From: Gemmatimonadales bacterium
GTDB lineage: Bacteria; Gemmatimonadota; Gemmatimonadetes; Gemmatimonadales; GWC2-71-9
Length of the DNA stretch: 64,000 nucleotides
Direction: 5' to 3'
NCBI GenBank assembly: GCA_041615815.1
Contig: JBFJCP010000002.1
Span: 173,025-237,024, forward strand
The position numbers and the translations under genes are program-made. How positions within the stretch are numbered: the first letter of the stretch is position 1; each line of letters starts with the position of its first letter. Under the pieces are notes generated by a model. The model worked only from the letters and a program-made list of their open reading frames with translations, did no database searches and had not been told where the DNA came from. Below, piece by piece: positions 10,151 through 25,357 of this stretch.

Positions 10151-11260
10151 CTAGCGTTCTTCCGTCTTCCAGAACGCGATCCCCCCCGCCTGCTGTCCCA
10201 CCTCGACCGATGCTACGAGCGTCAACGTGCCCACGTCGACGACGTCGACCTTCCCGGGTTGGGCCCCCACGTTCTCCACAGTGACAAAAGCGTAGCGGCC
10301 GTCCGGTGACACGACGACGCCGTGCGTCACCGTGCCGGTGGACGGCACAACGGCGCGACTCCGGCCGGATGCGAGATCGAAGAACTGTACCGCCCCACCC
10401 TGCTTGAGGGTGACGATGAGCGTGTTCCCATCTGGCGTTACCGCCAGGTTGTAGGGGCCGCGGCCGGTGGGGAACCGCCGGAGGAGCGTCCAGCGATCGA
10501 CGGCGACTTCGAGGATCTCGTCGCTCTTGTTGCACGCCACGTAGATGCGGTCACCGGATGGGAGCGGTGCGGCCCATGTGGGGCCGCAGGCAGCTGCGGC
10601 GCCCCGGCGACTCGACCCGTGCGTCGCCGCGGCAACACCGCGCTCTTGCCCAGGTACGACCGTGAAGCGGCGAGACACTTGAAACGTGCGGGTGTCGAGC
10701 TCCACCACCTCGTCGTCTCTGACACAAGCGGAATACGCGACGAGACCGTTCGGGTGGATACGCATACCATGCGGCTGGGTGCACGTCGTCGTCTGCGCGA
10801 CCTCCACCATCTCCGGTGTGAACACCACCGAAATGGTGGATGGCTCGGGAGCGCCGTGGAGATTGAAGTTGGCCACGAATGCGTAGAGGCCATCGGGTGT
10901 CAGGTCCAGCGTGGCGGGAAAGCGACCGAGGAAGGTGGAGGTTCCCACGGCGGTGTCGGGACCGGTAGCGATTTTCCAAAACTTGCCGTCCGGAATCCCG
11001 TGACCGGTCGTCATGTAAAGGAAACGCCCATCGGGCGAGGTCCGGAGTCCGTGGGGTCCTTCGGTTTCTGAAAAGAACTCGCCAACCTCGGTAGTGCGCT
11101 CCACAGTGGCATCCCCCGACCCAAACCGGACACGGTGTAAGAGATCGGCGGATTCGGCAGCCACATAGACCCAGTAGGACCGAGACGTCCGCTGGGCTGG
11201 TACGTCCGCGGCTGTCGAGCAGATCAACAATCCCAGCAGAAGACCGTTGCGGAGCCACAC
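10151..11260 (-). CDS. YncE/YVTN-type beta-propeller secreted protein
   Basis: Repeats 'GPHGLRTSPDGRFLY', 'GPYNLAVTPDG' and 'THGVVVSPDGRYAFV'; signal peptide. Confidence 0.85.
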   Translation of the reverse strand: MWLRNGLLLGLLICSTAADVPAQRTSRSYWVYVAAESADLLHRVRFGSGDATVERTTEVGEFFSETEGPHGLRTSPDGRFLYMTTGHGIPDGKFWKIATGPDTAVGTSTFLGRFPATLDLTPDGLYAFVANFNLHGAPEPSTISVVFTPEMVEVAQTTTCTQPHGMRIHPNGLVAYSACVRDDEVVELDTRTFQVSRRFTVVPGQERGVAAATHGSSRRGAAAACGPTWAAPLPSGDRIYVACNKSDEILEVAVDRWTLLRRFPTGRGPYNLAVTPDGNTLIVTLKQGGAVQFFDLASGRSRAVVPSTGTVTHGVVVSPDGRYAFVTVENVGAQPGKVDVVDVGTLTLVASVEVGQQAGGIAFWKTEER

Positions 11261-11266
11261 GGCGCG

Positions 11267-11797
11267 CTAATCCTCCTCGTCCAATTCGTCGGGCGCCGCC
11301 CGCAAGTACACGATGTAGTCCAACCCCGGCGGTTCCAGATCGATGCCCCGCAGCGTCGCGAGAATCTGGGCTCGGTGATGGGTGGAGTGGTTGAGCACGT
11401 GGGCCACGATCTGGATGAGTGTGTGTTGGTACCGCTCGCCCCGGGTATTCTGGTAGGATACGATCCGCGCGAAATCCATCGGGGTGAGAGACTCGAGGTA
11501 TGTCTCCCAGCTCCCGCGAGCACGGTCGAGTAACGGCGGCAACTCAGACAGCGAGCGGGTGCCCCAGACCGGCTGCATCTTCTCCCCGGAATCGCGGATG
11601 CGTCCCAACCAGAGCAGCTCACTCGCCAAGAGATGGCCAAACAAGCGGTGGGCGCGGTCGAGCCCAGCCTGCACTGACAAACTGCGCCCCCCCGCTTGCC
11701 CTTTGAGAAAGCTCAGCAACATGCGATTGGCCCACCAGTCATGGCGGAAACGTTCCAGGAAATGGTTGCGAAACAGACCGAGGTCCTGTTCGCTCAT
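11267..11797 (-). CDS. DinB/YfiT-family protein
   Basis: 'HDWWANRMLL', 'HLLASELLW' and 'HVLNHSTHHRAQI' DinB motifs. True start is likely ATG 11797; the longer ORF extension overlaps the structured RNA. Confidence 0.88.
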   Translation of the reverse strand: MSEQDLGLFRNHFLERFRHDWWANRMLLSFLKGQAGGRSLSVQAGLDRAHRLFGHLLASELLWLGRIRDSGEKMQPVWGTRSLSELPPLLDRARGSWETYLESLTPMDFARIVSYQNTRGERYQHTLIQIVAHVLNHSTHHRAQILATLRGIDLEPPGLDYIVYLRAAPDELDEED

Positions 11798-11835
11798 CGG
11801 CGTAACCCCCAGGCGAACGTCGCCACAGAAGACTA

Positions 11836-12528
11836 GGGGAACACGGGACCGTTGGCCAGCGTCCCTCGCTCCTTCCGGGCACTCCAAGTTGACCCGTACT
11901 TGACCGGGCCTCACTACTCATTCTCGAGAGAACCTCCCCCACCCCGGGAACGCAAACGACGAGGTGATCACTGCCCGAGCCCTCCGTTTGTGCTCAGGCG
12001 TTGGATCGGTCGCGCCGGTCGCCGACCGGTGCTCGAGACGTCGAGCTCGTGGCGGTTGCCACGCGGCGTCGCGGCGTCGTCTTTGCTCCGCGCGGTTGTG
12101 GCCAGGGAACGGACGCGAAGGTGGCGGACGGCCACTTGGCCCGCGACGCGCATTCCGATTGCCGACGTGGTTAAGTCCCAAGCCGTGCAGATCCGTGCGT
12201 TCGTGACCGTCGTCATCGCCGGAGGACTGCTCGCTCCGCTACCGGATCCGGCTCCGGATTACCTCTCCGGTGTCGAGAAACCGACGTTACACCGAAGGCC
12301 AGCCGAAGCAACCGACGAACGTGCGCGTCCGAGTCGCCTACGGGTGCCAAGCGCCGTGCAGCTCGACTCGTTGCCGCTCGCGGAGCTTCACCGTTTCGGG
12401 ATCGTGATGCGACCGGAAACATGCCAGCGACGCGGGGCGGCGCCACACGTTTATTGCTAACGCTTCCTCGGCCCCAAGGCAGGTCCTGACGGCCACTTAC
12501 CCGATCCCTGCCGTGTTGCGGGTCCCCC
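11836..12528 (-). ncRNA. Candidate large (~690 nt) highly structured non-coding RNA, class not recognised
   Basis: No credible CDS. 5' end GGGG..AACAC..GGGAUCG..UGGCCG pairs with 3' end UGGCCA.CGGUCCC-GUGUU-CCCC. Many internal stems, GCAA/UUCG loops, two apparent pseudoknots, and a TACACT -10 box just upstream (12532-12537). Confidence 0.6.
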
Positions 12529-12667
12529 ACGAGTGTAGTAACCGAAGTGAGGACCGCCGGAGACGTGGAACCGCCGCGACATCGCAAACCGCCTATTTCT
12601 CTCGCAGAATCCCGTCAAATCAGGGTCGAATCACGGCACAAGGGTTGCACCAGCAATCCACAGCGTC

Positions 12668-12755
12668 CCGCTCGGACGCTCGCCGAAGCGAGCCCTCGGT
12701 CGTGTAGGCGTGCGGCGGGTACGCCCAGTCCCGCGCGTCGTGCGCGCCCGAGCGG
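12668..12755 (+). promoter_or_regulatory. Four-way-junction RNA structure in the leader of the coiled-coil/HhH gene
   Basis: Closing stem CCGCUCGG/CCGAGCGG encloses three hairpins (12678-12693, 12707-12725, 12732-12746). G-U pairs favour the + strand. Confidence 0.4.
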
Positions 12756-12836
12756 TGAACAGTCGGTTCCGTCCGAGCACCGAACGTCTGGTGTCGCCGG
12801 AAGCCCCCGGAAGCAAGCGGGGGCGGGAGTCGTATC

Positions 12837-13751
12837 ATGTGGTATCTCATCGGAGAAATCCTCGCCGCGCTCGTCTTCGGGCTCCTGATTGGGGCAGCCA
12901 TTGGCTGGGTATTCCGCGATCAGCGGGCCAAGAAGGATCTGAACGAGCTCAACACGTACTGGCTCACGACCAAACGGCGGTTGGAATCCCGCCTCACGGA
13001 GTTTCGTGAGCACCTGCAGCAGGCCGATCAGCGGCACTCACACTTGGAGCGCACGCTGGACGAGAAGCTGTCGGCCCTCAAGCGGGTCGCCGGCGACCTT
13101 GGCACCGCGGAAAGGCAGGTGACCGACCTCGAGTCACAGGTCGTGGTGCTGCAGTTGGAGCATCGTGCCTTGGCCAGGCATCTCGAAGCGACGGGTGGCC
13201 GCGGCCGCGAGTTGGAGGAGGCGCTCCAGATGGCCCAACAACGCGTGGCGGAGTACGAGCCCCTGGTGGCCGAGTGCACCGAGCGCGAGGCCAGGATCGA
13301 GGAGCTCTCATCGTTGGTCGCATCCGCCGATACCCGCATTGCTCAGATCGAGACTGAGTATCAGTCCGAGATGGAGCAAGTCGAAGCGACGCATCGGCGA
13401 GAACTCGAGGCCAAAGACAAGCGCATCGAGCGGTTGCAGGCCGAGCTGCAGCAGATCAAAGAGGCCGTGGGCGCCGGTACCAGCGGCGGCAATGGCCGAA
13501 ACGGCAGGAACGGCAGACGGAGCGGCAATCGTATCGCCGCGTCTCCGGACAACCTGCAGCAGATCCGTGGCATCGGCCAGGGCATCGAGAAGGTGCTCAA
13601 CCGGATGGGTATCCACACCTTCGAGCAGATCGCCGACTGGAGCCCCGAAGAGATGGAACGGGTCTCCGAAGAGTTGGGGCCGCTCCAGAACCGCATCAAC
13701 CGCGACCGCTGGGTGGCGCAGGCTCGGAAACTGGCCAAGACGAAGGCGTAG
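12837..13751 (+). CDS. Membrane-anchored coiled-coil protein with C-terminal helix-hairpin-helix domain (COG3743-like)
   Basis: N-terminal TM helix, long heptad-rich region, C-terminal 'DNLQQIRGIGQGIEKVLNRMGIHTFEQIADW...RINRDRWVAQA'. Confidence 0.85.
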   Translation: MWYLIGEILAALVFGLLIGAAIGWVFRDQRAKKDLNELNTYWLTTKRRLESRLTEFREHLQQADQRHSHLERTLDEKLSALKRVAGDLGTAERQVTDLESQVVVLQLEHRALARHLEATGGRGRELEEALQMAQQRVAEYEPLVAECTEREARIEELSSLVASADTRIAQIETEYQSEMEQVEATHRRELEAKDKRIERLQAELQQIKEAVGAGTSGGNGRNGRNGRRSGNRIAASPDNLQQIRGIGQGIEKVLNRMGIHTFEQIADWSPEEMERVSEELGPLQNRINRDRWVAQARKLAKTKA

Positions 13752-13818: not shown

Positions 13819-14988
13819 TCATCCCACGAACTCTCGGAGAACCGTGAGCAACCGCTCGGCATCGGATTGCTCGTTGTAGACGTGTGGCGAAACGCGGATG
13901 GCGTCGCCACGGACGCTCACGAACACCTGCTTCTCCATGAGGCGTTGCGGTAGCGCTCCGGGAATTCCGTGCGGAAGCCGCACACCGAGCATGTGGCCAA
14001 CGCGATGACTCGACGGAAGTACCGCACATCCCACTGCTTCGGCCTCCGCTGCCACAAAATCTGTGAATCGGCGCAGCGTTGCGGCAACCCGCTCGACCCC
14101 CCATTCCAGAAGCTGCAAAAGGGCTGTGCAAGCCATGGGCGCGAGAACAAACTGTGGGTATTCGCCCATATCGAAGCGCCGCGCACCCGGCCGGTAGGTG
14201 TCCACGTAATCCACGAGGCCGGCGAAATCCTCGGCACCGGCCCGCGTCAACCACGACGCCTCCAAGGGTTGTCCCACCTCGCGCCATTTGGGGCTGGCGT
14301 AGAGGTAACCGAGACCGTACGGACCGAGCTGCCACTTGTATCCCACGGACACCAAGAAGTCCGGCTGCACGGCGGCGACATCGAGGGGATAGGCACCCAG
14401 CGATTGGCTCGCGTCCACGACCAGGGCCGCCCCCACGGCACGGGCGTGCGCTCCGACCTTCACGAGATCGACGAGCGCGCCGTCCGTCCAATGGCAATTC
14501 GGGACCGCAACGACCGCGGTCTCCTCATCGATGGCGTCGAGAACGGCGTGCGTCCATGCATCGGATGGTGTCTTTCGCACGGTACGCACGGTAGCGCCGC
14601 ATGCATGGGCTCGCTCACGCCAGGCGTAGACGTTGGACGGGAATTGTTCGCTCAGCATCACCACGTTTTGCCCCCGATAGAGCGGGACGTTCGCCGCGGC
14701 GACGGCGACGCCGTAACTCACCGCGGGGACGAGGGCAATGCCGTCGGTATCAGCGCCCATGAGCCGCGCCGCCGCGGCTCTCAGCGCTTCGGCCTCCGTG
14801 AACCAATCCGGCGCTCGCGTCTTCCACGGGGCCTTCTTCCGCGTGACGGCGGCGAGGCCGGCGACCGTCACGGCGCGAAGCTGGGGTGACATGTTGGCGC
14901 AGTTAAGGAATGCCACGCCCCGCGGAAGATCGAAGAGGGCGCGTTGTGGAGGGAGGGAGTCTGGCACTTTACTGGCTATATCACTCAT
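13819..14988 (-). CDS. PLP-dependent aminotransferase class V (cysteine desulfurase/lyase-like superfamily)
   Basis: 'FLNCANMSP', 'LVVDASQSLG', 'GYKWQLGPYGLG' (PLP Lys) and 'IRVSPHVYN'. Confidence 0.9.
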   Translation of the reverse strand: MSDIASKVPDSLPPQRALFDLPRGVAFLNCANMSPQLRAVTVAGLAAVTRKKAPWKTRAPDWFTEAEALRAAAARLMGADTDGIALVPAVSYGVAVAAANVPLYRGQNVVMLSEQFPSNVYAWRERAHACGATVRTVRKTPSDAWTHAVLDAIDEETAVVAVPNCHWTDGALVDLVKVGAHARAVGAALVVDASQSLGAYPLDVAAVQPDFLVSVGYKWQLGPYGLGYLYASPKWREVGQPLEASWLTRAGAEDFAGLVDYVDTYRPGARRFDMGEYPQFVLAPMACTALLQLLEWGVERVAATLRRFTDFVAAEAEAVGCAVLPSSHRVGHMLGVRLPHGIPGALPQRLMEKQVFVSVRGDAIRVSPHVYNEQSDAERLLTVLREFVG

Positions 14989-16337: not shown

Positions 16338-17396
16338 CTAGCTCTGCCTGCACCAATTCCCAAGCTCTCGCTTCACCCTTCGCTCATCATTGATGATCTC
16401 ATAAAACTCGTCGTAGTACGCCAGCGACCGCTCGAGCACCGCCGGTTCGAGCTCTTTCTGCTGTCGGTACAGATCGTAGATTGCCTCACGAAGTTCGTTG
16501 AAGACCTTAAACGCTCCCGGAAGAAACTCCTCGAAGACGCAGAGCCCACGATACCGACGGTCGCGTACCGTCCAGATCCCCAGTTGCTTCCGCCGGTGCG
16601 GCTGATAGACGCTGTTGGCGTAGCGGGTTTCGATGACGCCTGCGAGATCGAAATCGTACGGCACCGCGTAGACGGGCCCGTCCATCGTGCCAAGGGGCTT
16701 CGTGTTGTGACAACACGTTCGTCGGTCTTCTTCCCGGACGAATGCGGACCAGTCGGTGTTGCCAATCATGAACTGGAAAACGCTGAGGAGGGCGATCTGC
16801 TCCGGATCGGCAAACTCGGGGGGCAGGGACGGAATCGCCAAGGATTCGAGCCCGTGTCTCGTAGCCAACATATCGTCGTCCTCAATCACAAACGCAAAGC
16901 GCGTAATCGGATCTCGGTCGCTCTCGGTATTTACATATGTGACGTGGAGGAGACGAACGCGGAAACTCACGTCATGCAGGAGATTGTAGGCCCGATAGAG
17001 CAAATACTCTTGCAGCACATACTGCTCGTACTCACGCCGTCCATCCCGGCAGTGTGTGACCAGCTTGAGCTTGTCCTGTCCGGCGAAGATCGTCCCCTCC
17101 ACCTGACCCTTTCTCAGGTTCAGCCTGATCGGGGGGAACCCGCAGACGTTGCGCTGAAGTCGGGTGGTACCCCTCGTGCGGACTTTGACGTCAAACGTGT
17201 CTGGATTATCGCCGAGGGTGAGGATCACTCGCGCCGGATGCTCCGAACTCTCCTGGCTTCGATCGCGGAAGATGGTCTTGAGCGGTGCCTCGAGGACGAG
17301 CTGGATGGGGCGGGTGGCAGCAAACAGCGGTGACGGCGGGTCCTCTGGCGGAGCGGACCACAGGAAAACTGCTGCGAGCGGGAAGGCAAGTTGCAT
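16338..17396 (-). CDS. Secreted hypothetical protein with CotH/atypical-kinase-like motifs
   Basis: Signal peptide; 'KLKLVTHC', 'EYLLYRAYN', 'FQFMIGNTDWS', 'HNTK' and 'VPYDFDLAG'. Confidence 0.7.
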   Translation of the reverse strand: MQLAFPLAAVFLWSAPPEDPPSPLFAATRPIQLVLEAPLKTIFRDRSQESSEHPARVILTLGDNPDTFDVKVRTRGTTRLQRNVCGFPPIRLNLRKGQVEGTIFAGQDKLKLVTHCRDGRREYEQYVLQEYLLYRAYNLLHDVSFRVRLLHVTYVNTESDRDPITRFAFVIEDDDMLATRHGLESLAIPSLPPEFADPEQIALLSVFQFMIGNTDWSAFVREEDRRTCCHNTKPLGTMDGPVYAVPYDFDLAGVIETRYANSVYQPHRRKQLGIWTVRDRRYRGLCVFEEFLPGAFKVFNELREAIYDLYRQQKELEPAVLERSLAYYDEFYEIINDERRVKRELGNWCRQS

Positions 17397-17693
17397 ACTC
17401 CCCCCCGGCGCTGAACAAGCCACCCACTTCCTGCTGCTGCAATCTATCTCACCGGCGACCTGGGAGCCAGATCGACCAGTGGATCGTCGTGCGCGCGTCG
17501 CCCCTTGCTCAATCCGCCACCGGGGCCTGCGCCGTATCTGGAGTTGGGGCGGTGCCGTTAGGATGCCGTAAGGCTAATAGATAGTGGAGGTTAAGAGCTA
17601 GAGGCAGGAGGTGGGTGTCGCTGCGTGCTTGCAGCTGCGGCGACCCGCCGGGTCGCGCCGCCGATGTCCACCCCTCTCGTGCCCTCAAACCTG

Positions 17694-22415: not shown

Positions 22416-23723
22416 TCATAACACACCAGCCGCCAGGGTTGCCAAACCGAGAAAGCTCAGAAACCCCACGACATCCGTGACCGTCGTCAGAACGATCGAT
22501 GACGCCGCAGCAGGATCCTGACCCAGGACACTCAAGATCATCGGAATCGACGCGCCCGCCAACCCCGCAATGACCATCGAGGAAACCATCGCCGTCATGA
22601 TGACACCCGCGAGCCCAGGTGAGCGACTCCATACGTAGACGGCGAGTCCGGTGACCAGCGCAACCGCTACGCCGTTCACAGCTCCAACCATGAGCTCTTT
22701 CCCGGAAATCCGGAACCAATGGCGTACGCGGATCTCGCGAAGCGCGAGCCCGCGCATCGTGACAGCAAGCGCTTGCGCACCGGTGTTGCCCGATTGACCG
22801 GCCACGACCGGCAGCAATACCGCCAGAGCGGTGAATTGCGCGATGGTGCTCTCGAACAGTCCCACGACGAACGCCGCCAAGAACGCCGTAAGTAGATTGA
22901 TCTGGAGCCACGGCAAGCGCTTCCGAACCGCGAACCACGCCGGGGAAAGCGCCCGTTCGTCTTTACTGGCTCCCACCATCGTCTGCACGTCTGCGGATGC
23001 TTCTGCCTCGGTCGCGGCGAGGAGCCCCTGTTGCCGGATGATACCCACGACTCGGCCGTGAAAATCCACCACTGGCACGCTCGGAAGCTGGTGCTGGGTG
23101 AGAACCTCCACCACCTCTGTTTGCGAGGCCGTGGCCTGAACCGCGGGCGGGTGCTTGCGCATGAGACTCTCGAGCGGCGCCCGGGTCTCGGCAATGGCCA
23201 GCTCCTGAAGCGGCACGGCGCCAATGAGCACACCGTCGTCGTCGACCACGACAAGTTGCGGAATTTGTTTATGACGGAGCCTTCGTAGCCTCGCCAGCGC
23301 ATCGAGCACCAGCGCATTGGCTCGGAAGGTCGAGACCCGCGGATCCATCAACCCACCAGCTGAATCGGATGGATACGTCATGAGCGCGCGAAGCTCGGCT
23401 GCCAGTTCATCCGTCAAGAGCCGCAATCGCGCGTCGCGCAGGTCGTCGTCCATGCGCGCGAGGACGGCCGCGACCCAACCGGGATCCACGGCCGGAACGA
23501 TCTGTCGGAACAGGACCTCCGGCAGTCGCTCGAGCACCTCGACGGCCACGTCCGGGCGGAGTCGCTCGGTGAGCGCGATGGCCTGCGTGACCGGTTGGCT
23601 CTCCAACAGTTCCACGATTTCGGCCGGTGGAGCGGACTCAAGCTGGCGGGCAGCTTCTGCCGGATACAACAAGGCAAACCGGTTGGCCAACGCCTGGGCT
23701 GTTCGTTCGTGTTCACTGGCCAT
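22416..23723 (-). CDS. mgtE: Magnesium transporter MgtE
   Basis: MgtE N domain, CBS pair, TM domain 'RKRLPWL', 'GQSGNTGAQ' and 'DPAAASSIVLTTVTDVVG' (pore Asp kept). Confidence 0.93.
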   Translation of the reverse strand: MASEHERTAQALANRFALLYPAEAARQLESAPPAEIVELLESQPVTQAIALTERLRPDVAVEVLERLPEVLFRQIVPAVDPGWVAAVLARMDDDLRDARLRLLTDELAAELRALMTYPSDSAGGLMDPRVSTFRANALVLDALARLRRLRHKQIPQLVVVDDDGVLIGAVPLQELAIAETRAPLESLMRKHPPAVQATASQTEVVEVLTQHQLPSVPVVDFHGRVVGIIRQQGLLAATEAEASADVQTMVGASKDERALSPAWFAVRKRLPWLQINLLTAFLAAFVVGLFESTIAQFTALAVLLPVVAGQSGNTGAQALAVTMRGLALREIRVRHWFRISGKELMVGAVNGVAVALVTGLAVYVWSRSPGLAGVIMTAMVSSMVIAGLAGASIPMILSVLGQDPAAASSIVLTTVTDVVGFLSFLGLATLAAGVL

Positions 23724-24540
23724 CGGTGGCCTCCCGATGTCCTATCGTGCCCTCGAACCCGAACAACACTTTGGAAAAGCCGTTCCAGTAGAGCTCTGCT
23801 AGGTTGATCAGAGGACTGAACCCACTGACGCCGGTCCGTACCTGTTCCATGAGGCGGCGCAGTGCCCGGTGACGGATCACGCCGAGGAAACTTCCCGATC
23901 CGTCTACCACTGGGAGGGCGTCGAATTCCAACCAGGCCGGGTCAGCGGCGACCGTGTGCAGATCGGTGTGCCCGCGCACAGCTACGGGTCCACGACGCAT
24001 GATCGCGTTGAGCGTCGCCGGGCCCGATGAGGACATCAGCTCGCCTAGATCCAGTACACCCACCAATCGATCACCGCGGTCCAGAACGTACAGGTAGGAA
24101 AACACCCGCTCAGGGGCTTGCCGCAGGAGCTTCAGCGCGTCCGCCACCGAGAGGTCTTCGGGCAGCGTGAGCACCGACGGATCGGCCAGGGCACCGGCCG
24201 TGCCCTCGGGGAATCGCAGCAGTCGGGTGACGGCATCCGCCAGATCTCTTGGCAACGTCGAGAGCAACGGCTGCGGATCCTTCATCTGGCGGAGCACCCG
24301 CGCGGCGACCGTGGCAGGGAGCGCGGACACGATGCGAGCGGCCTGTGCCTGATCCATCGCTGCCAGACAGCCACCGGCTCGCGTCGAGCTCATTTGCGAC
24401 AAGACACCCGTGACGTCCGCTGGAGCCAGGATCGCGAGAAACGAAGCGGTATCCGTTGGGGGGAGCCGCTCCATCAGACGCGCCGCATCATCGGGGTGCT
24501 GCGTCGTGAAGGCAACGCCCATTCTCTGTGCGAGTTCCAC
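23713..24540 (-). CDS. MgtE-like cytoplasmic-only protein (N domain + CBS pair, no TM domain)
   Basis: 'FPEGTAGALADP', 'YLYVLD..DRLVGVL' and 'LPVVD...FLGVI'; ends without the membrane domain. GTG start at 24540 with GGAGG. Confidence 0.8.
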   Translation of the reverse strand: MELAQRMGVAFTTQHPDDAARLMERLPPTDTASFLAILAPADVTGVLSQMSSTRAGGCLAAMDQAQAARIVSALPATVAARVLRQMKDPQPLLSTLPRDLADAVTRLLRFPEGTAGALADPSVLTLPEDLSVADALKLLRQAPERVFSYLYVLDRGDRLVGVLDLGELMSSSGPATLNAIMRRGPVAVRGHTDLHTVAADPAWLEFDALPVVDGSGSFLGVIRHRALRRLMEQVRTGVSGFSPLINLAELYWNGFSKVLFGFEGTIGHREATDGQ

Positions 24541-24541
24541 G

Positions 24542-25357
24542 TTAGCTCGCCTCCGTGAGAAGGATGGACGTTTCTTCGCTGAACCGCATTGCGGGAATGT
24601 GGACGCGACCTTCATCGGTATGTACGACAACTGCGGTTGGCGTCGTCTCCACCACCCGCCCCTGTATGGCTCCGATCCGGACCATCTGTCCGGGCCGGTA
24701 GGCTTGGGATGCGTAGTGGGACGCGATGATATTGCTTACCGCGGTGCGTGCCCCCAGACCAAAAGCAATACCCGCACCGCCCAAGAACGTGGCAAAGATC
24801 ACGGCCACGATCACGACGAACAGTTGGCCGCGAATGCCGATCTGCTCCAACCCCACCACGATGGCCACCAGGAGAATCGTAGTCTGGACCGCACGGCCAA
24901 GCGTGGCCGCGCGGGCAATACCGGCGGTGCTCGCGGCGGTGATCACGCCACCACCTGCCAGTTTCCCCACCACGAGACCGCCGACCACGATGAGCACACC
25001 CGCCAGGACATTCGGGAGATAGTGCGTGACTTGTCGCAGCGAGCTGCTGAGCACCGGGAGCCCAAGCGTTTCGATGGCGGCCGCCAGGAAGAGCAAAAGG
25101 ACCAACCAGAAAACGAAACCGCCCACCAAGCGAGCAATCGTGGGCCGGACACCGCTGGTCTCGAGCGCTCTCTCCACCGCGGTGTCCCTCCCGACCCGCC
25201 GTAAGACCCGCTCGGTACCACGGCGACTTGCGACGCGCAGGAGGAGCGCCACGAGCCACCCCAGGAGTAGGAGCCCAGCCGCACTGGCCAGCGTAGGGAG
25301 AAACTGCCCGAGTTCCGACGCAAACGTGCGGAACTGGGCGAGGAACAGTGGTAGCAT
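24542..25357 (-). CDS. Small-conductance mechanosensitive channel-like protein (TM_helix repeats + MscS beta domain)
   Basis: 'YLPNVLAGVLI', 'IAFGLGARTAVSNIIA' and 'G.MVRIG...GRV....T......EG.VHIP'. Start at ATG 25357 with GGAGG. Confidence 0.85.
   Translation of the reverse strand: MLPLFLAQFRTFASELGQFLPTLASAAGLLLLGWLVALLLRVASRRGTERVLRRVGRDTAVERALETSGVRPTIARLVGGFVFWLVLLLFLAAAIETLGLPVLSSSLRQVTHYLPNVLAGVLIVVGGLVVGKLAGGGVITAASTAGIARAATLGRAVQTTILLVAIVVGLEQIGIRGQLFVVIVAVIFATFLGGAGIAFGLGARTAVSNIIASHYASQAYRPGQMVRIGAIQGRVVETTPTAVVVHTDEGRVHIPAMRFSEETSILLTEAS

Follow-up and report, generated by a model that had tools for sequence, protein, structure and literature searches.

A gap of 1,039 nt in a Gemmatimonadota genome is, by a slight preference, a species-specific non-coding spacer with little selection acting on most of its length. 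Together with the case in which it serves as a long dinB leader, this reading stands modestly above an even chance. The helices which can be drawn in the gap are mainly what a sequence of 66% GC yields by chance. The first-pass annotation had placed here a large non-coding RNA, possibly of a new class. Its view that the element is neither tmRNA nor RNase P RNA was borne out, and no Rfam family matches the element, but no homologue was found and the element folds like shuffled sequence. The balance lies against the large-RNA reading. On present evidence, the candidate is above all an example of how easily a persuasive fold can be drawn by hand in DNA of 66% GC. If the RNA reading were true, the candidate would be one of very few bacterial non-coding RNAs longer than 600 nt, and structural studies could turn to such a new class directly. 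Members of this small group have been found to form RNA-only dimers and nanocages (PMC12286853).

Gene context and signals for transcription

The window (the whole stretch of 64,000 nt that was analysed) is part of contig C2 of a 4.19-Mb assembly which is 96% complete, and matching DNA was seen in marine and soil metagenomes. The candidate sits in the gap between the start of a DinB-family gene (11797, minus strand) and the start of a coiled-coil protein gene (12837, plus strand). Its GC content is 66.5% against 64.8% for the remaining window. That this 1-kb gap holds no credible protein was confirmed, the hexamer score being non-coding and none of the 18 stop-to-stop frames reaching the Pfam cut-off or matching PHROGs. 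The YncE-like gene and dinB probably form one operon. Both same-genus genomes carry dinB orthologues of 61-62% identity with different upstream neighbours, the same-genus orthologue of the coiled-coil gene is preceded by another gene than here, and the neighbours of the flanking genes differ on both sides in the relatives examined. The spacer would thus lie between divergently transcribed gene blocks brought together in this lineage, and its working parts would probably be the promoters of both blocks. It may have originated from decayed or acquired DNA. Remains of a decayed gene were looked for and not found, which leaves the origin unexplained and was counted against the spacer. An msrA remnant was unsupported (best 8 of 12 residues, E 0.055), and decay of another gene found no support from 12,535 open frames of the genome and the fetched loci or from the upstream genes of relatives.

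Features of the gap and its flanks (positions in the window)
Feature	Position	Strand	Remark
Candidate element	11836..12528	-	non-coding, single-copy, as bounded by the first-pass annotation
-10-like hexamer TACACT	12532..12537	-	no -35 box found 16-18 nt upstream
Terminal stem, 5' strand	12490..12528	-	proposed; four blocks, bulges of 4-6 nt
Terminal stem, 3' strand	11836..11858	-	proposed; last C run alternatively pairs with the G run upstream of dinB
Local 4-bp hairpin	12204..12215	-	pair probability 0.99; rival of the long-range helix
9-bp helix of the first-pass annotation	12066..12149	-	common polymorphism at 12147 breaks inside; soil strain breaks its end (12074)
Three tandem perfect 6-bp hairpins, single-A spacers	12015..12063	-	soil-strain changes at 12021-22 in the third loop
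8-bp hairpin	11973..11999	-	pair probability 0.99
Possible H-type pseudoknot (6+6 bp)	11884..11910	-	first stem well predicted
Shine-Dalgarno-like G run	11806..11810	-	8 nt before the dinB start
DinB-family gene	11267..11797	-	directly downstream of the candidate
YncE-like beta-propeller gene	10151..11260	-	6 nt after dinB
Coiled-coil protein gene	12837..13751	+	divergent from the candidate
202-codon open frame	11852..12460	+	predicted by gene finders in Logan contigs; an orphan and likely spurious

The start of dinB at 11797 is favoured by orthologues over one at 11914. The latter, which gives a protein of 215 aa (11267-11914) and an overlap with the candidate, comes from the NCBI/Logan annotation of the long contig. 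No tRNA gene was found in the 64-kb window, in which ARAGORN reported no tmRNA either, and a Pfam scan of 43 flanking proteins revealed no phage or integrase family. The gap shows no convincing terminal repeats and the candidate is single-copy, so no signal of a mobile element or repeat was obtained. An exact 11-nt direct repeat is present inside the candidate (12127-12137 and 12488-12498, 361 nt apart), either copy of which has a possible pairing partner. Upstream of the proposed start, a second hairpin cluster at 12668-12756 of the minus strand has a closing stem of 8 bp and a hairpin of 6 bp whose loop is UUCG. The folding z of 12660-12765 is -0.9 for the minus and -1.7 for the plus strand, and no homologue of the cluster was found in 150 relatives. 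In the same 150 relatives, the upstream part of the gap (12540-12836) gave no homologue beyond a single 38-nt match.

A TACACT -10 box ahead of the initial G run had been reported and is indeed there, at 12537-12532 of the minus strand and 3 nt ahead of the run. The spacing rule for -10 boxes is 6 nt to the start, and TACACT may start a minus-strand transcript near 12526. Over its 1,039 nt, the gap has three TANNNT hexamers, TACACT included, on the minus strand and none on the plus strand. The tRNA, tmRNA and RNase P genes of this genome are likewise preceded by TANNNT boxes, which frequently come with a TTG-type -35. No intrinsic terminator was found between the candidate and dinB, and a transcript begun at the box would therefore form a long leader that extends into dinB and the YncE-like gene. 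Two of the 11 runs listed were RNA runs (one study, a share of 0.05 each), and both gave contigs that map to 12767-13008, where the plus-strand neighbour begins, outside the candidate. The hole which they leave over the candidate carries no weight because the data are assembled contigs only. A 762-nt 'skip' in run X6 was dismissed, since the side that supports it is 20 nt long and 80% alike.

Folding of the candidate against chance expectation

The foremost rival of the spacer, a large structured RNA which would be an orphan and belong to a class so far undescribed, is unlikely. Such an RNA would be transcribed from the TACACT promoter and closed by a bulged 23-pair terminal stem. It would be cut from a dinB-containing precursor and, by analogy with ROOL, GOLLD and OLE, might act as a folded scaffold. 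It would have come by horizontal transfer and be too rare or too diverged for the searches. In a more general form, likewise unlikely, the gap would contain the first known member of a rare class of end-paired, pseudoknotted RNAs of about 690 nt in one marine and soil Gemmatimonadota species, missing from both Rfam 15 and the relatives searched, with its own promoter and with processing from a dinB-containing transcript. It would possibly be a large cousin of the rnhA-linked RNA described below.

The strands of all helices named in the first-pass annotation were found in place and all are able to pair. Its 11 nested helices are mutually compatible, with an energy of -307.6 kcal/mol when enforced together against -316.3 kcal/mol without constraint, and this compatible fold less than 9 kcal/mol above the minimum counts for an orphan RNA. 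The ensemble supports the individual helices less well. The four colinear terminal helices, the 9-bp helix (12141-12149 with 12066-12074) and the long-range helix (12203-12217 with 11955-11971) are all present and can pair, but pair probability is 0.04 or less for three of the four terminal helices and for the other two, and the long-range helix competes with a local hairpin. The pairing of 12196-12202 with 11948-11954, proposed to cross this helix, is possible over 7 bp but leaves zero-nucleotide linkers to the long helix on both strands. The two together would be sterically strained, and the local hairpin would fit better. The H-type pseudoknot proposed at 11884-11909 can form, but 11 of 60 shuffles contain one of equal quality. 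The annotation had also preferred the minus strand for its GCAA and UUCG loops. GNRA or UUCG words closed by at least two pairs do number seven on the minus strand against three on the plus strand, which favours an orphan RNA, but the constrained folds contain no GCAA or UUCG loop.

When the candidate was compared with shuffled sequences, its folding was mostly no more than chance. For the minimum free energy, z was 0.06 (minus strand) and 0.35 (plus strand), no better than shuffles, and none of the 120-nt windows inside the candidate had z beyond -2. Watson-Crick helices of at least 6 bp numbered 67 against 83.7±8.8 in 200 shuffles. The best 50-nt local z was -4.0, which was equalled in 13 of 40 shuffles and, each on its better strand, in 23 of the 37 other gaps of at least 600 nt in the genome; the list of these gaps omits that of the candidate, which is partly masked by a weak frame. 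Some of the other gaps (C8:53619, C6:10490, C13:104525, C38:26658) contain much stronger hairpins with 50-nt z of -7 to -10, which may be terminators or repeats. As controls from the same genome, the RNase P RNA gave z of -5.0 and the tmRNA -1.0. The flat z of the candidate lowers the case for an RNA and does not remove it, because the real tmRNA of this genome is also unremarkable.

Few measures stand out from chance. The chain of three hairpins at 12063-12015 occurred in none of 1000 shuffles and is the sole such chain in 4.19 Mb under strict settings, while five relaxed settings gave 2 to 97 loci in the genome. The best colinear partner of the 5' 40-mer, with 23 pairs, is exactly 11858-11835 at the edge of the gap. 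By pair count this fit was reached in none of 40 shuffles (best shuffle 22), whereas 36 of 100 shuffles equal it when judged by energy. Hairpins with short loops show a modest excess (58 against 43.5±6.5, p 0.02). The hairpin chain, the hairpin excess and the coincidence of the -10 box, the G run and the best end-to-end fit support an orphan RNA. The metrics for the chain, the end-to-end fit and the -10 position are post hoc, set after the sequence had been seen, and this counts against the same reading. For the spacer, the placement of TACACT, the 23-pair fit, the three-hairpin chain, the sparing of helix interiors by strain changes and the tmRNA z near -1 were counted as adverse.

Strain variation, relatives and known RNA classes

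Variation within the species hints at little overall constraint. Soil run X7 provided one contig of 1,032 nt over 11438-12470 at a depth of 5.9, with 20 substitutions (18 listed) and three gaps. Within the candidate 15 listed substitutions fall on 630 nt (2.4%), and the neighbouring genes of the same strain have 6 synonymous changes at 285 sites (2.1%) and 2 non-synonymous changes at 895. The candidate therefore does not differ from the synonymous rate (Fisher p 1.0) and diverges at about ten times the non-synonymous rate, on small counts from one strain and a single low-depth contig set. The Logan variants of the plus-strand frame added two variable sites, 12453 (from variant P0010, taken as the same contig as X7) and 12147. 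The change at 12147, present in 5 of the 12 Logan variants (P0001-P0012) as judged from a Thr-to-Met replacement, breaks an inner pair of the 9-bp helix, the partner codon being unchanged. The loop of the 8-bp hairpin carries one substitution and one insertion in the soil strain. None of the 17 known changes is compensatory. Divergence at the synonymous rate and the lack of compensation argue against an orphan RNA.

The sparing of stems is a weak hint in its favour. Three of the 17 changes fall in the helices of the first-pass annotation and break them, one of these internally, against 4.3 expected (p 0.34). Helix interiors, in helices chosen blind to the variation, took none of the 15 soil-strain changes against 2.7 expected (p 0.051), and one of 17 when the two further sites were included (p 0.16). 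Ensemble-based tests were not significant on the minus strand (p 0.09-0.47), which weighs against the RNA; on the plus strand p was 0.014 and 0.017 only at the 150-nt span, one of four settings.

The check on homologues in relatives came back negative, and this is a main point against an orphan RNA. DNA searches over overlapping sets of 60 relatives and 400 phylum, 400 family and 300 order genomes found none; together the sets amount to several hundred genomes from the phylum and include the two other members of the genus. The same-genus genomes are 91% and 94% complete and show no trace of the candidate or of a similar dinB leader. One unpublished genome (G016) is counted in these negative tallies and supports no positive claim. 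The matches covered only 27-51 nt. Those in the first three sets did not extend under nhmmer, and the one in the order set gave no nhmmer match at E≤1. Phage and plasmid DNA gave matches of at most 61 nt with E of at least 0.02. Neither seven motif scans of viral contigs (0, 115, 64, 40, 12, 37 and 30 stretches) nor one of GTDB contigs (47 stretches) revealed similarity in the flanks, exact-motif scans being of a kind that overlooks relatives which differ within the motifs. Scans with the 202-codon frame (22, at least 599 and at least 599 stretches) and with DinB (551 stretches) confirmed nothing and are weak negatives. Taken together, the motif and frame scans covered viral, metagenome and GTDB contigs. 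Three models (R1-R3), each built from a single sequence and so prone, like single-sequence searches, to overlook distant relatives, were run on 140, 5, 5, 150 and 150 genomes. R1 gave 18 matches of at most 24.5 bits in 17 of 140 genomes, attributed to chance, and the best of them lay inside msrA (five were examined in detail). R2 and R3 gave at most 26.7 bits, and all 10 matches checked lay under long open frames, most with codon-like GC.

Comparison with known classes gave no assignment. Rfam 15, with 4227 models, had no match at gathering level in the window, and at E≤10 over 11500-12900 it gave a single chance match to a lncRNA (E 8.1, 12 bits against 75). As claimed earlier, hallmarks of tmRNA, of RNase P RNA and of group II introns are lacking. 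No model of these matches the candidate, and the genome carries one ordinary tmRNA on contig C1 (ARAGORN) and one ordinary RNase P RNA on contig C8 (286 bits). The tmRNA resembles the candidate in its paired ends and in a G run at the start after a -10-like box. For group I and II introns there was no Rfam match at this intergenic site and no frame for a reverse transcriptase or endonuclease. A targeted search for GOLLD (RF02032) left none of four candidates at E≤1, with a weak positive control (1 of 14 genomes). ROOL (RF03087) and OLE (RF01071) had no Rfam match, and their targeted searches were also blank with silent positive controls.

The size of the candidate is, as the first-pass annotation stated, comparable to that of ROOL, GOLLD and OLE. 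MISL, also named there, is not mentioned in PMC5737381. ROOL has an average of 581 nt, with one member of 659 nt, and many GOLLD RNAs have more than 800 nt (PMC5737381, PMC12286853). Size class and a proposed multi-junction, pseudoknotted fold are shared with the candidate. ROOL and GOLLD usually lie near tRNA genes or in prophages (PMC12286853), and the candidate differs from them in lacking a model match and a tRNA, phage or integrase context, which counts against an orphan RNA. These classes also rest on covariation across many homologues, while the candidate has none found. The description of ROOL names only 10 highly conserved nucleotides (PMC5737381), and therefore sequence searches could miss such a family; a similarly low conservation could hide an orphan RNA. 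OLE has a similar length, and the candidate is like it in lying directly before a downstream gene with no terminator. The ole gene adjoins oapA with no terminator between them, whereas the downstream gene here is of the DinB family. OLE is described from extremophilic anaerobes (PMC3413148). No description of such an RNA in Gemmatimonadota was found in the open-access literature covered, and the candidate can be called undescribed within that scope only, as supplements may hold motifs absent from Rfam.

Remaining alternatives and other features of the window

A cis-regulatory leader of dinB is improbable. It would act as a switch with two alternative partners for the terminal C run. Pairing to the 5' G run would leave the ribosome-binding site free, pairing to the Shine-Dalgarno-like G run would block translation, and the body of the RNA would sense a signal. 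The lack of a terminator ahead of dinB agrees with it, as does the pairing of the C run with 11806-11810 at a summed probability of about 0.5-0.6 in a 3'-only fragment. Against this, neither pairing dominates in the full-length fold, the dinB orthologues of both same-genus genomes have no similar leader, and chance pairings between G and C homopolymers are probably common.

An orphan protein on the plus strand, with the drawn helices being incidental, is very improbable. It would have 202 codons or, in a form which starts at 12146 in some strains, 104 codons. Of 14 substitutions in the strain, eight are synonymous when read in this frame (3.7 under the null, p 0.014, or about 0.09 when six frames are allowed for), the 3' half is low in second-position GC (0.50), the two indels of the strain offset each other so that the frame stays open, and gene finders call it. 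Nevertheless, 1.84 billion representatives and two word-based searches yielded no relative, and there was no Atlas match. Its GC3 of 0.66-0.69 equals the background, hexamer scores are mostly negative and there is no codon bias, and the strain form carries radical changes with a frameshifted segment of 14 residues.

An uncatalogued RNA found downstream of rnhA in Gemmatimonadota was used as a control and weighed as a possible relative. It is about 300-345 nt long and was rebuilt from 15 of the 32 loci fetched (L467, L474, L476, L478, L480, L482-L487, L490, L492-L494; the locus of the unpublished genome was left out). Its members share a conserved -35/-10 promoter as well as a terminator, several pair types occur in the stems, and identity between genera is 70-83%. 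That the candidate is an expanded distant relative, in which 12254-12180 would correspond to the 5' three-way junction of the family with a downstream-pairing linker, is again very improbable. The most conserved hairpin of the family does resemble 12218-12203 in a similar junction, and its linkers can pair downstream as 12202-12196 can with 11954-11948. Judged from sequence profiles alone, the membership is contradicted, since the candidate scores below zero bits with the 15-sequence profile and is missing from the results of five sub-profiles. Its hairpin motif ranks only 364th in the genome, 8 of 377 genomic matches to the motif satisfy the same structural criteria, and the hairpin has 4 pairs against 6 in all 15 members. 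No member of the family was found in the genome of the candidate by the 15-sequence profile. The two are alike in phylum, one short hairpin motif and a junction, and unlike in that the rnhA-linked RNA is half the size, with homologues easily found and promoter and terminator conserved. It illustrates how a real RNA of this phylum looks in such an analysis. Its -35 element and terminator, both absent at the candidate, were counted for the spacer.

Other features were observed in the window beyond the gap. A class-V aminotransferase gene (13819-14988, minus) is split into parts of 125 and 256 aa in many Logan contigs of the same species (18 and 16 contigs) and is whole in others. A 361-aa gene (16338-17423, minus) has normal codon bias and belongs to no Pfam family. 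Two tandem MgtE/CBS genes, one of them without a membrane domain, are present at 22416-24615 of the minus strand and adjoin a mechanosensitive-channel-helix gene.
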